Source: an uncultured Bacilli bacterium
GTDB lineage: Bacteria > Bacillota_I > Bacilli_A > RF39 > UBA660
Length of the DNA stretch: 64,000 bases
Assembly: GCA_944371905.1 (NCBI GenBank)
Contig: CALVYA010000001.1
Location: 5,627-69,626, forward strand
Direction: 5' to 3'
A program made the position numbers and the translations under genes. Under the pieces are notes generated by a model that searched no databases, had not been told where the DNA came from, and worked only from the letters and a program-made list of their open reading frames with translations. Below, in pieces: positions 6,283 to 9,923 of the stretch (position 1 is its first letter; the number at the start of each line of letters is the position of its first letter).

Positions 6283-6291
6283 CATACATTA
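6283..6291 (+). promoter_or_regulatory. candidate sigma-K-type -10 element CATACATTA
   Basis: Matches the mother-cell late promoter -10 consensus CATAnnnTA, 22 nt upstream of the bclA-like ATG. Confidence 0.35.
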
Positions 6292-6312
6292 CTATAGAAA
6301 GGATGATATAAA

Positions 6313-7185
6313 ATGAATAATAGTTTTGATGGTAATGATCTAGAGTTTTGTAAATTTAGAAATTGTTGTAGTAGATTTTGCTTTGGACCAACAGGGCCAA
6401 CAGGGCCAACCGGACCATCAGGAGGACCAACCGGAGCAACAGGACCAACGGGGGCAACGGGGCCAACAGGGCCAACCGGAGCAACAGGACCAACAGGAGT
6501 AACAGGACCAACGGGGGCAACAGGACCAACCGGAGCAACAGGACCAACAGGACCAACGGGGGCAACAGGAGCAACAGGACCAACAGGACCAACAGGGCCA
6601 ACAGGACCAACAGGAGTAACAGGACCAACAGGAGCAACAGGATCAACAGGGCCAACAGGACCAACCGGATCAACAGGGCCAACAGGGGCAACAGGACCAA
6701 CGGGACCAACAGGGCCAACCGGAGCAACGGGAGCAACAGGACCTTCCTTTAATGAAGCAGCTATGATACATGAAGAAACAGAACCAATCGTTAATACTGC
6801 AGAACCTATTAAGTTTAGTACAACTAATTTAGCTAATGGTATTAGTTATGATCCAGCTACTGGAGAATTTAAGGTTCCTAGTAATGGGCAATATATAATT
6901 CATTGGTGGGTAAATGTAAGAAATCGTTCTATGGATTTAGAAAATTGTGAAGAGAGACCATTAGGTATCGAATTACATCAAGCTTATCCATTCGATGTAA
7001 GAATTGCTCATTCTTCTACTCATAATAGATTAGGATGTTGTGATACTGGTACAATTAGTGGAAATGCAATTTTTAATGCTTCAGCAAATTCTACTTTTAG
7101 ATTTATCAATTCTTCTTCAGTGCCAATTCAATTAGTTCCTAATGATCTTTATTCTGCATCTATTTCGATAACTAGAATAAATTAA
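6313..7185 (+). CDS. BclA-like collagen-like exosporium glycoprotein (GPT/GAT triplet repeats plus C1q/TNF-like C-terminal domain)
   Basis: About 41 consecutive Gly-X-Y triplets, dominated by GPT and GAT as in Bacillus BclA, encoded by 9-bp DNA tandem repeats at 6378..6750. Cys-rich N-terminus. The roughly 145-aa C-terminal globular domain has a BclA-like pattern. Confidence 0.75.
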
Positions 7186-7200
7186 AAGGATTTATTAAAA

Positions 7201-7232
7201 TAAACTACTGGATTTTCCGGTAGTTTATTATT
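7201..7232 (+). terminator. rho-independent terminator
   Basis: 11-bp stem taaactactgg / ccggtagttta with a weak T-run. Confidence 0.45.
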
Positions 7233-7270
7233 GTATTAATTTTATTGGTGTACATATTCGATTAATACTA

Positions 7271-7279
7271 CATAAATTA
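7271..7279 (+). promoter_or_regulatory. candidate sigma-K-type promoter (AC -35 at 7252..7253, -10 CATAAATTA)
   Basis: AC-N17-CATAAATTA arrangement 24 nt upstream of the ATG. Confidence 0.4.
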
Positions 7280-7302
7280 ATTTTGAAAGGATATGTTATG
7301 AA

Positions 7303-8094
7303 ATGAAAAGTGAAGATTTTAATAATTATTTGAAAAAATATCCAAGATTTTGTTACTTTATACTTCCTCATTTAACGGGTCCAACGGGAGCAATCGGACC
7401 AACAGGACCAACAGGACCAACGGGACCAACCGGAGCAACGGGAGCAATCGGACCAACCGGAGCAACGGGAGCAATTGGACCAACAGGACCAACCGGAGCA
7501 ACGGGAGCAACGGGAGCAATTGGACCAACAGGACCAACCGGAGCAATCGGACCAACAGGACCAATAGGAGCAACAGGACCAACCGGAGCAATTGGACCAA
7601 CAGGACCAACCGGAGCAACGGGAGCAACGGGAGCAATCGGACCAACCGGAGCAACAGGACCAATGGGAACTAGTGCAGTTCCTGAGTCGTTATCAACAGT
7701 AGATATTGCACCACAACCTGGTATTGCTAGTCAGCCATTATCTTTTAATATTAATACTGTAACATCAGGTCAATTGATTACACATGCTACGAATTCTCCT
7801 AATATTATAATTTCAGGTAATGGGATTTATCAAGTATTATTTAATGGAAGCATAGCCCCTTTCTCTAGTACTACTTTACCTGCTTCCATTGTTATTTATT
7901 TAACTACCAATGGTTCTATTAGTAATATAGGAGCTACACAAACGTTTACTTCTATAGAAACAGATACTATTTCTTTTCAGGGGTTAATTAAAATAACAAA
8001 TGCACCAGTTACTTTAAATGTTTTAGTAGAAAATTCTGGTTTTTTATTTAGCAATATTACTCTAACAGTTATTAGATTAGGAAATATTAGTTAA
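7303..8094 (+). CDS. BclA-like collagen-like exosporium glycoprotein, paralogue 2
   Basis: About 33 G-P/A-T and G-A-I triplets (9-bp tandem repeats 7378..7670), then a Thr/Ser/Asn-rich C-terminal beta domain. Tandem with 6313..7185. Confidence 0.75.
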
Positions 8095-8146
8095 TTAGTT
8101 TAGATGAAATAGTAGTTTTTTGTTATGATAATTCTTTTTTGATTAT

Positions 8147-8155
8147 CATAAATTA
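8147..8155 (+). promoter_or_regulatory. candidate sigma-K-type -10 element CATAAATTA
   Basis: CATAnnnTA match 20 nt upstream of the glycosyltransferase ATG. Confidence 0.3.
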
Positions 8156-8175
8156 AATTAGGAGTTGTTATAAAA

Positions 8176-9267
8176 ATGAGTAAAAAATATAAAATATGTG
8201 TTTATGCTATTTCTAAAAATGAAGAAAAGTTTGTAGATCGTTGGGTTGCTTCTATGAAGGAAGCAGATGCTATTTATGTATTGGATACTGGTTCAACAGA
8301 TAATACTGTCCAAAAGTTAAGAGAAAAAGGAGTTAATGTTAAAGTAGATTTTATCGTACCATGGCGATTTGATGTAGCAAGAAATAAATCTTTAGAATGG
8401 ATACCAGAAGATTTTGATATTTGTGTTTGTACAGATTTAGATGAAGTATTTAAAGAAGGATGGAGGGAAGAATTGGAGTCTAAATGGGATAAAGGTACTA
8501 CTAGAGCTTCTTATAATTATAATTGGAGTTTTGATGAATATGATCGTCCAAAGGTGAACTTTTATATTGAAAAAATTCATTCTAGAAATAATTATAGATG
8601 GGTTCATCCAGTTCATGAAGTATTAGAATATACTGGTCAAAAAAGTGAAACTAAAGTAGTAATAGATAAAATTACTTTAAATCATTATCCTGATCATCAA
8701 AAATCACGTAGTTCTTATTTGCCTTTATTGGAATTATCGGTAAAGGAAGATCCTACAGATGATAGAAATATGCATTATTTAGGAAGAGAATATATGTATT
8801 ATGGAAAATGGAATGAAGCGATTGATACTTTAATTCGTCATTTATCTCTACCTAAAGCTACATGGAAAGATGAACGAAGCGCATCTATGCGTTTTATTTC
8901 TAGATGCTATATTGAATTAGAAAGATATGAAGAGGCTCGAATGTGGTTATCTAAAGCTATTGTAGAAACTCCATATTTAAGGGATCCCTATGTAGAAATG
9001 GCTTTATTAGAGTACAGACTAAATCGTTGGGATAAAGTAGAATTTTATTGTAAAGAAGCCTTAAAAATAACTAAACATGAAAAGACATATATTAATGAAC
9101 CGTTTAGTTGGGATTATACCATTTATGATTTATTATCTTTAAGTTGCTTTTATCAACAAAAATTTGTGGATTCATTGGAATATATAAATAAAGCAATAAA
9201 AATGGATCCGAATAATCAAAGATTATTAAAAAATAAAGAGTTAATATTAAAACATTTAAATAATTAA
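8176..9267 (+). CDS. family 2 glycosyltransferase with C-terminal TPR-like repeats
   Basis: GT-A N-terminus (ICVYAISKNEEKFV, DTGSTDNT, DxD-like TDLDE). C-terminal helical repeats. Position directly after the collagen-like genes parallels bclA-associated glycosyltransferases. Confidence 0.7.
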   Translation: MSKKYKICVYAISKNEEKFVDRWVASMKEADAIYVLDTGSTDNTVQKLREKGVNVKVDFIVPWRFDVARNKSLEWIPEDFDICVCTDLDEVFKEGWREELESKWDKGTTRASYNYNWSFDEYDRPKVNFYIEKIHSRNNYRWVHPVHEVLEYTGQKSETKVVIDKITLNHYPDHQKSRSSYLPLLELSVKEDPTDDRNMHYLGREYMYYGKWNEAIDTLIRHLSLPKATWKDERSASMRFISRCYIELERYEEARMWLSKAIVETPYLRDPYVEMALLEYRLNRWDKVEFYCKEALKITKHEKTYINEPFSWDYTIYDLLSLSCFYQQKFVDSLEYINKAIKMDPNNQRLLKNKELILKHLNN

Positions 9268-9288
9268 TCAACATAACCGAACACTATT

Positions 9289-9297
9289 CATAAGTTA
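9289..9297 (+). promoter_or_regulatory. candidate sigma-K-type promoter (AC at 9271..9272, -10 CATAAGTTA)
   Basis: AC-N16-CATAAGTTA arrangement 14 nt upstream of the sod ATG. Confidence 0.3.
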
Positions 9298-9311
9298 TAT
9301 TAGGTGATAAA

Positions 9312-9923
9312 ATGTATAATCCGATTAATTTAAACTATTCTGTTAATGAATTAGAACCATATATTGATGGCGAAACTGTAATGATACATTATGAAAAACA
9401 TTATATGAATTATTTAAATAAATTAAACCAGATATTAAATAAATATAATTTTAATTTTGATATTGATAAAGAATTTATATTTGATAACATAGATAAATTT
9501 AATGAAGAAGATCGAGAAGACGTATTATATAATTTAGGCGGAGTAGTCAATCATGAACTTTATTTTTCGAATATGGATCCGTCATTAAATAACATTCCTA
9601 TGGGAAGTATAAAAAAAGCTATTGATACTAAATATGGAAATTATGAAAATTTTAAGAACGAATTTATCAAAAAAGCAATGGCATTTAGGGGTTCTGGGTA
9701 CGTATTTTTAGTTTTAACCCCAAATGGCGATATAGATATCGTTGCTCTTGACAATCAAGATAGCCCCTATAAGTATGGTTTAATTCCTATTATGGCTATG
9801 GATATATGGGAGCATTCTTATTACTTGAAACATCAAAATAGAAAAGAAGACTATTTTAATGATTTTTTCAAAGTAGTTAATTATTCTTATATTAATAATT
9901 TGTATGAAGATGAAAAAATATAA
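9312..9923 (+). CDS. sodA: Fe/Mn superoxide dismutase
   Basis: N-terminal HYEKHY metal-ligand region and C-terminal DIWEHSYYL motif of Fe/Mn SODs. 203 aa. Confidence 0.8.
   Translation: MYNPINLNYSVNELEPYIDGETVMIHYEKHYMNYLNKLNQILNKYNFNFDIDKEFIFDNIDKFNEEDREDVLYNLGGVVNHELYFSNMDPSLNNIPMGSIKKAIDTKYGNYENFKNEFIKKAMAFRGSGYVFLVLTPNGDIDIVALDNQDSPYKYGLIPIMAMDIWEHSYYLKHQNRKEDYFNDFFKVVNYSYINNLYEDEKI

Follow-up and report, generated by a model that had tools for sequence, protein, structure and literature searches.

A probable BclA-like spore-surface module with CATAnnnTA promoter motifs in an uncultured low-GC Bacilli bacterium

The systems closest to the locus described here are the BclA-type collagen-like proteins of Clostridioides difficile and Bacillus. 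In C. difficile, the glycosyltransferase (GT) SgtA, which is 358 amino acids (aa) long and combines a GT-A domain with four tetratricopeptide repeats (TPR), adds beta-O-linked N-acetylglucosamine (beta-O-GlcNAc) to threonines of the BclA3 collagen repeats and is encoded next to bclA3 (PMC7157674). The genes bclA1-3 and CD3350 are down-regulated in a C. difficile sigK mutant (PMC3789822). In B. thuringiensis the bclA promoter has the form CAC-N16-CATATGTTA, and the sigma-K-dependent transcripts of iunH, bxpB and bxpA begin 10, 24 and 26 nucleotides (nt) before the ATG (PMC4750369). Superoxide dismutase (SOD) is also a known component of the exosporium or spore surface (PMC4750369, PMC3789822). 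Here, four adjacent genes on a 64,000-nt stretch of contig CALVYA010000001.1 from an uncultured Bacilli bacterium (the whole stretch is referred to as the window) are compared with these systems. Two of the genes encode BclA-like collagen proteins (col1 and col2), the third a GT and the fourth a SOD, and each is preceded by the motif CATAnnnTA. Based on this comparison, the four genes probably form a module that acts late in sporulation, in the mother cell, to build and decorate the outermost surface of the spore in an uncultured low-GC gut Bacilli bacterium. The module is a further example of the known bclA/sgtA kind and not a new mechanism.

The genes of the module and the elements between them are arranged as follows.

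6283-6291, + strand: CATACATTA, sigma-K/E-type -10 element of col1, 21 nt before the ATG, no AC at -35
6313-7185, + strand: col1, BclA-like collagen protein, 290 aa (open reading frame (ORF) list, Pfam)
7199-7229, + strand: terminator-like hairpin after col1, 14 pairs followed by a T-rich tail
7252-7279, + strand: col2 promoter match, AC (7252-7253), 17-nt spacer and CATAAATTA (7271-7279), 23 nt before the ATG
7303-8094, + strand: col2, BclA-like collagen protein, 263 aa (ORF list, Pfam)
8147-8155, + strand: CATAAATTA, -10 element of the GT gene, 20 nt before the ATG, no AC at -35
8176-9267, + strand: GT2 (GT-A) and TPR glycosyltransferase, predicted cytoplasmic, 363 aa (Pfam)
9271-9297, + strand: SOD promoter match, AC (9271-9272), 16-nt spacer and CATAAGTTA (9289-9297), 14 nt before the ATG
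9312-9923, + strand: Fe/Mn SOD, 203 aa (Pfam)

This arrangement bears out what a sequence-only reading of the same DNA had proposed: two tandem collagen-like genes with BclA-like jelly-roll tails (Pfam Collagen and fold matches to spore-surface proteins), a GT2/TPR glycosyltransferase (Glycos_transf_2 and several TPR families), a Fe/Mn SOD (Sod_Fe_N and Sod_Fe_C, with the metal ligands aligned), CATAnnnTA ahead of all four genes, and AC at -35 spacing for col2 and the SOD. The hairpin 3' of col1 fits separate transcription units, as a terminator at this place suggests that col2 would be transcribed from its own promoter.

CATAnnnTA is not over-represented across the window, where G+C is mostly 23-31%; with 80 matches against 98 +/- 10 expected, it is depleted if anything. 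Among 51 gene proxies, it lies within 45 nt upstream of the start of the four module genes and of one other (61365; Fisher p = 2e-5). For comparison between species, 80 loci from other species were gathered via the GT, and the motif was counted 8-45 nt upstream of their ORFs. It precedes 43 of 63 collagen-like ORFs (68%), 17 of 80 GT orthologues (21%) and 27 of 598 other ORFs (4.5%), and at this last rate, taken as background, a four-out-of-four occurrence has a probability of about 4e-6. When all 4096 patterns of the form XXXXnnnXX upstream of collagen-like genes were enumerated, CATAnnnTA ranked first (44 of 63 against 27 of 598, p = 7e-35), 26 orders of magnitude ahead of the runner-up (2e-8), which shows that the motif was not cherry-picked. 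Collagen ORFs without it are mostly second or third genes of tight tandems or have a miscalled start. Eleven of the 27 motif-bearing other ORFs encode three SODs, four short-repeat collagen-like proteins, CotJB, YlbD_coat and two proteins that each contain four LysM domains. The individual elements are conserved as well: the SOD motif is kept as CATA(A/C)ATTA 14-16 nt before the ATG in the three relatives that have a SOD after the GT (L007, L008 and L011), despite diverged flanks. L008 and L011 also retain the -10 element of the GT as CATATATTA, and L007 retains it with a single change (CATATATTG). A chance occurrence, which the sequence-only reading had considered improbable from the four-out-of-four count, is ruled out by the non-random placement within the window together with the conservation and enrichment across species.

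The one motif-bearing gene of the window outside the module, at 61365-62912 (+), encodes a protein of 515 aa that contains Cohesin and Cadherin-like domains, and CATAGAGTA stands 12 nt ahead of the GTG predicted as its start. Further Cadherin-like proteins are encoded at 26293-27645 and 37188-38780.

Both collagen ORFs match Pfam Collagen (E 2e-16 and 4e-15). In col1, a Cys-rich N-terminal domain of 24 aa is followed by 40 GXY triplets (aa 25-145), with Thr at Y in 37 of them, and by a C-terminal jelly-roll of C1q/BclA_C type (aa 146-290; 6748-7182). In col2, the N-terminal domain has 25 aa, the collagen region 33 triplets (aa 26-124; Thr at Y in 23 of 33), and the BclA-type jelly-roll covers approximately aa 121-263. 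GPT and GAT are the dominant triplets in both regions. Comparison of the two C-terminal domains with the PDB by sequence alone gave nothing useful (E 1.7 and 0.37). The tail of col1 has 129 close relatives, many of them annotated as BclA_C or C1q; for the tail of col2 a word-indexed search gave 2 matches and an exhaustive HMMER search 194 relatives, and when 59 of these were aligned with the window domain, Pfam BclA_C matched 36 of the 60 rows. AlphaFold models of both tails reached high predicted local distance difference test (pLDDT) values, 93.6 for col1 (from 50 sequences) and 96.6 for col2. In Foldseek, the col1 tail matches the C-terminal domain of F-BclA best among PDB entries (9h38, E 7e-12), with TNF and C1q domains next in rank, and for the col2 tail 9h38, BclA (3twi, 2r6q, 1wck), BxpB (8d02) and ExsFA (7r1m) all rank above TNF/C1q. 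The top matches of both tails have a probability of 1.00 and template modelling (TM) scores of 0.72-0.79. On these models, both proteins have a predicted BclA-type architecture.

Many relatives of the col1 tail (e.g. P0200, P0194, P0216 and P0181) are stand-alone proteins of about 140 aa that consist of the BclA_C/C1q domain only and are encoded on contigs of 78-290 kb, with no collagen region. These might be basal-layer partners similar to BxpB/ExsF.

By inspection of the termini (no predictor was used), neither col1 nor col2 has a signal peptide, an LPXTG motif or a wall anchor, and the NCBIfam models of the Scl and Lcl adhesins score far under their cut-offs. The lack of a secretion signal fits the assembly of filaments from the mother-cell cytoplasm. 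The BxpB-binding N-terminal motif of Bacillus is LVGPTLPPIPP, and inspection of the two N-termini revealed nothing resembling it. To our knowledge, the BclA proteins of C. difficile are also without this motif, which marks a Bacillus subgroup only. Instead, the patterns CCxxxC[F/Y]-GPTG and YxxALxKIxxDxxCxPxCC recur in the N-termini across species. As these N-termini differ from the Bacillus BxpB-binding domain, the chemistry of anchoring is probably different, with disulfide bonds to Cys-rich proteins of the CotZ/ExsY kind as a plausible form of attachment. Within the species, collagen length varies between metagenomes (L001-L006; col1 has 290, 287 or 269 aa, col2 has 263 or 245 aa), and the C-terminal domains are 99-100% identical in spite of this. 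Between species the tail domains are highly divergent, with tblastn recovering them in only 3 of 80 loci.

The GT matches Pfam Glycos_transf_2 (E 6e-8), TPR_2 (E 2e-13) and TPR_1 (E 1.5e-10), with the TPR matches covering about aa 180-355; other TPR families match aa 184-347. It has the motifs LDTGSTD and DLD, in which D37, T38, G39, S40, D42, D87 and D89 show no variation among 12 orthologues. In the PDB, its sequence weakly matches the O-GlcNAc transferase GmaR in the GT domain (22ao, E 0.004). Of the 74 loci in which 1.2 kb or more of DNA precedes the GT, 53 have a same-strand collagen repeat directly upstream of it, a count whose composition filter missed two further collagen-GT loci. All-against-all clustering of the 816 ORFs of the 80 loci showed the collagen family to be the sole one consistently linked to the GT, and no other such family was found in this set. 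Homologues of the GT also lie beside GXT-repeat genes on mobile elements: on plasmid p16118 of Peribacillus frigoritolerans (L089, 4779-7083) a GT of 51% identity follows a GXT collagen-like gene, and in Actinomycetia phage DSL-LC01 (L091, 1-5080) a GT of 45% identity is found about 3 kb from two collagen genes. This distribution on a plasmid and a phage suggests that the GT2-TPR family may generally be dedicated to collagen-repeat substrates.

The SOD is intact, matches Sod_Fe_N (E 6e-18) and Sod_Fe_C (E 3e-31), and aligns over its full length to solved Fe/Mn SODs. Its best PDB match by sequence is 3tjt, presumably the C. difficile enzyme, and the metal ligands His/His/Asp/His (H of IHY, H of NHE, D and H of DIWEH) match those of 3tjt. 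A more distant species (L057, 4-2995) has, in this order, a SOD gene, two collagen-like genes, the first with CATATTATA and the second with CATATGATG, and a GT that starts from TTG; the SOD link is thus seen again there in another arrangement.

Further genes in the window relate to sporulation.

59116-59814, + strand: sigK, intact (TIGR02846, 301 bits against a cut-off of 298.65; NF004471, 312.8 against 252)
54110-55463, + strand: Peptidase_M23 (54110-54721) and Peptidase_M50 (54843-55463), after radC-mreC-mreD
59910-61361: PdaA/PdaB-like polysaccharide deacetylase, adjoining sigK
36576-36989 and 36144-36560, - strand: two tandem Cys-rich CotZ/CotY/ExsY-family genes (PF10612), 16 nt apart

The place after radC-mreC-mreD is presumably that of spoIVFA/spoIVFB in B. 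subtilis; no NCBIfam model matched the M50 and M23 proteins above cut-off as SpoIVFB and SpoIVFA, and the assignment to M50 comes from Pfam only. The pair of CotZ-family genes is followed by a terminator-like hairpin. Judged by gene content, the window shows that the organism has late mother-cell machinery, with the CotZ/ExsY-family proteins as candidate scaffold proteins of an outer layer. These two genes also support, in part, the sequence-only reading's description of the module as exosporium-type, while an exosporium itself is something we infer. The nearest genome records are labelled uncultured "Bacilli bacterium", "Tenericutes bacterium", "Mycoplasma sp. CAG:877" and "Clostridium sp. 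CAG:451", which we take to belong to RF39/RFN20-type orders. For RF39, RFN20 and ML615J-28, both sporulating and non-sporulating species have been predicted, with most coat genes of the Bacillus model lacking (PMC10868615, 2024). For this genome-reduced gut clade, KEGG gene sets led to the prediction of "fragile" spores without almost all known coat proteins. Elsewhere in the window, a T-box leader (Rfam RF00230, 94.8 bits) at 19422-19611 (+) lies upstream of the gene at 20027-21316.

Could the collagen proteins instead be fibres of a phage or mobile element, or vegetative adhesins of Scl type, that are glycosylated there by the GT? Phage homologues of the GT exist at 29-45% identity, including that of DSL-LC01 with its two collagen genes nearby, phage fibre domains are also among the matches of the C1q/TNF-like fold (9eul, 8ke9), and in several related loci the collagen or GT genes adjoin a large serine recombinase. 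However, no phage structural, lysis or integration genes surround the module in the window, where the flanking genes encode an acyl-CoA ligase, an aldehyde dehydrogenase and an isoleucyl-tRNA synthetase (IleRS). The best structural matches are spore-surface proteins of Bacillus, the sporulation-type promoter motif is conserved across species, and sigK and the CotZ-family genes are located in the same window. Together with the missing signal peptide and anchors and the low Scl scores, this makes a role as fibres or adhesins highly unlikely. For the window locus in particular, prophage or tail-fibre identity is ruled out by the absence of phage genes nearby, and a vegetative Scl-like adhesin by the absence of a signal peptide or anchor.

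The recombinase of the related loci is an observation in its own right. This large serine recombinase (650-695 aa; Resolvase, Recombinase and DUF4368 domains) is found near the GT in 9 of 80 loci, and in the following ones it terminates within or shortly ahead of the start of a motif-less BclA-like ORF or, in L022, just before the GT.

L011, 3385-5884: serine recombinase locus
L012, 2528-6000: serine recombinase locus
L039, 2667-5947: serine recombinase locus
L022, 3761-5833: serine recombinase ending just before the GT instead of a BclA-like ORF

It could represent an intervening element of a spore-surface gene, similar to skin or SPbeta, or a mobile element integrated there. A wider reading would join these observations: a genome-reduced clade would have a fast-evolving coat of BclA-like filaments with a new Cys-knot anchor (CCxxxC[F/Y]-GPT) and one conserved GT2-TPR enzyme, and in some species a bclA-like gene would be split or controlled by a recombinase element adjoining its 5' end, as a developmental rearrangement of the skin or SPbeta kind. 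As a whole, this combination is speculative and seems unlikely to hold.

A spore-surface module is the preferred interpretation of the four genes, and several points count against it. Sporulation is only predicted for the lineage of this uncultured organism. In profile searches, BclA_C scores 23.2 bits on col1, under its cut-off of 38, and the C-terminal domain of col2 has no match in Pfam. Just 4 of the 80 loci (L007, L008, L011 and L057) have a SOD gene close to the GT, and the SOD is by this distribution a lineage-specific add-on to the module; in C. difficile, sodA is assigned to sigma-G and not to sigma-K (PMC3789822). Jumbo phages carry distant homologues of the GT, with no collagen gene annotated nearby. 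Neither CotZ-family gene has an exact CATAnnnTA within 45 nt upstream: the first (36576-36989) is preceded by one-mismatch variants only, and the second (36144-36560) has the motif 95 nt upstream. With regard to the promoters, AC is found 16-17 nt upstream of the motif in 14 of 46 promoters across species and in two of the four in the window (col2 and SOD). The -10 element is common to sigma-K and sigma-E and is also carried by the CotJB gene. Finally, distances of 14-23 nt from motif to ATG imply leaders of merely about 8-17 nt, with the Shine-Dalgarno sequence at their extreme 5' end.

The -35 region is only partly sigma-K-like, and control by sigma-E or by both factors is possible. The -10 elements of sigma-E and sigma-K promoters are very alike and the difference lies at -35, where sigma-E has ATA and sigma-K has AC (PMC3789822). 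The earlier assignment of sigma-K-type promoters stands as far as the -10 match and the presence of sigK in the window go, but the -10 element alone cannot separate the two factors. The same module could be driven by sigma-E, or by sigma-E and then sigma-K, with an AT-rich block (T at -21, ATTATT) serving as a sigma-E-type -35 element. This would agree with T at -21 in 38 of the 46 promoters, compared with the 14 that have a correctly spaced AC. The motif at the CotJB gene points the same way, CotJB being sigma-E-dependent in B. subtilis. In addition, a preprint places bclA2 and bclA3 under both SigE and SigK (10.1101/2021.06.21.449304). On the other hand, TA at motif positions 8-9 is a signature of sigma-K, and C is enriched at -17 (19 of 46 promoters against a background of about 12%; C or T in 39 of 46). 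The sigma-E -10 consensus is CATACAnT, and positions 5-6 of the motif are A/T followed by A rather than CA, with C at position 5 in only 3 of 46 promoters. As bclA genes moreover depend on sigma-K in B. thuringiensis (PMC4750369) and also in C. difficile (PMC3789822), a module driven by sigma-E appears rather unlikely.

Upstream of the collagen genes of L007-L086, a second conserved, AT-rich block is found at -31 to -17 relative to the motif, e.g. GGCATTAATTATTA or GATTATTC. The block might act as an unusual -35 element or be bound by a regulator such as GerE or SpoIIID.

Alternatively, the conserved CATAnnnTA-N3-TAGAAAGGAGG block could be a transcribed element of the 5' untranslated region, either a translational operator or part of a structure, with the true promoter located in the AT-rich block 17-30 nt further upstream. 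The motif stands in a fixed register with the Shine-Dalgarno sequence, motif-relative positions +12 to +19 are strongly conserved, the leaders implied by the promoter model are unusually short, and a second conserved block is indeed present upstream. Against such an element speaks the exact match to the sigma-K -10 consensus in front of gene classes that are sigma-K-dependent elsewhere. The SOD and GT genes also keep the motif at variable distances from differing Shine-Dalgarno sequences (GGTGA and AGGAG), and it occurs at the spore genes for CotJB, YlbD_coat and LysM proteins. Short leaders are not exceptional either, as sigma-K-dependent ones of 10-26 nt are on record (PMC4750369). A role in the leader in place of a promoter is therefore very improbable.

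Returning to a late mother-cell module, its operation can be pictured as follows. RNA polymerase with sigma-K, possibly with a contribution of sigma-E, would start a few nt upstream of each Shine-Dalgarno sequence at four separate CATAnnnTA promoters. In the mother-cell cytoplasm, col1 and col2 would trimerise via their jelly-rolls and the (G-P/A-T)n regions would zip up. The GT2-TPR enzyme would then O-glycosylate Thr at the Y position, perhaps in the way that SgtA places beta-O-GlcNAc on BclA3. The short Cys-rich N-termini may fix the filaments to the outer spore layer, for which the CotZ/ExsY-family proteins, with genes 26 kb distant, might provide the scaffold. The co-expressed Fe/Mn SOD could be laid down in the same layer, where it would detoxify superoxide or support oxidative cross-linking.

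Uncultured lineages labelled Bacilli or Tenericutes are abundant in human and animal guts, and their sporulation has so far been predicted from partial gene sets (PMC10868615). A module of BclA/SgtA type with sigma-K-type promoters, together with sigK and CotZ/ExsY genes, provides concrete sequence evidence for decorated spores, which bear on how these bacteria pass between hosts. The GT is conserved across related species (63-74% identity) yet the collagen tails are hypervariable, a contrast suggesting that hosts, phages or the immune system exert selection on the surface of the spore. As a signature, CATAnnnTA some 20 nt ahead of an ATG also allows the mother-cell regulon to be mined in these metagenome-assembled genomes. 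For general spore biology the module is an expected extension and no surprise; its value lies in the evidence of sporulation and the regulon signature that it offers for the lineage.

Compared with the BclA (and BclB) nap of B. anthracis and B. cereus, the window proteins share the GPT-rich collagen region, the TNF/C1q-like jelly-roll and the lack of a signal peptide, and Bacillus BclA likewise has a CATAnnnTA sigma-K promoter and a repeat number that varies between strains (PMC4750369). They differ in their short, Cys-rich N-terminal domain, in which CCxxxC[F/Y] directly precedes the first GPT, and in the absence of rhamnose or anthrose biosynthesis genes adjoining the module. The sequence identity of the C-terminal domains to their Bacillus matches is just 17-20%. 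The best structural match of both tails, with TM scores of 0.72-0.78, is F-BclA, the tip fibrillum of F-type endospore appendages in B. thuringiensis (9h38); unlike in that system, no genes for Ena-type appendage subunits were identified beside the module in a search that was not exhaustive.

The SOD resembles the spore-associated enzymes, i.e. C. difficile SodA, the exosporium SODs of B. anthracis and B. subtilis SodA in CotG assembly, in being a cytoplasmic-type Fe/Mn enzyme with no signal peptide. It differs from these in that its gene is physically linked to the bclA and GT genes and carries a mother-cell-type motif, a linkage limited to a few related species.

The closest parallel is the SgtA (CD3350)-bclA3 locus of C. 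difficile. Some features set the two apart: sgtA lies upstream of bclA3 and the window GT follows its collagen genes, the window has two collagen genes with unrelated C-terminal domains and a motif at each gene, and the TPR region begins at about aa 180 in the window GT (Pfam) compared with aa 262 in SgtA (PMC7157674). In both, however, a GT-A and TPR enzyme of nearly the same length (358 and 363 aa, a comparison by architecture and length only) is encoded beside a collagen gene of BclA type whose GXY repeats are rich in Thr. The C. difficile pair is sigma-K-dependent (PMC3789822), and the window genes carry sigma-K-type motifs.

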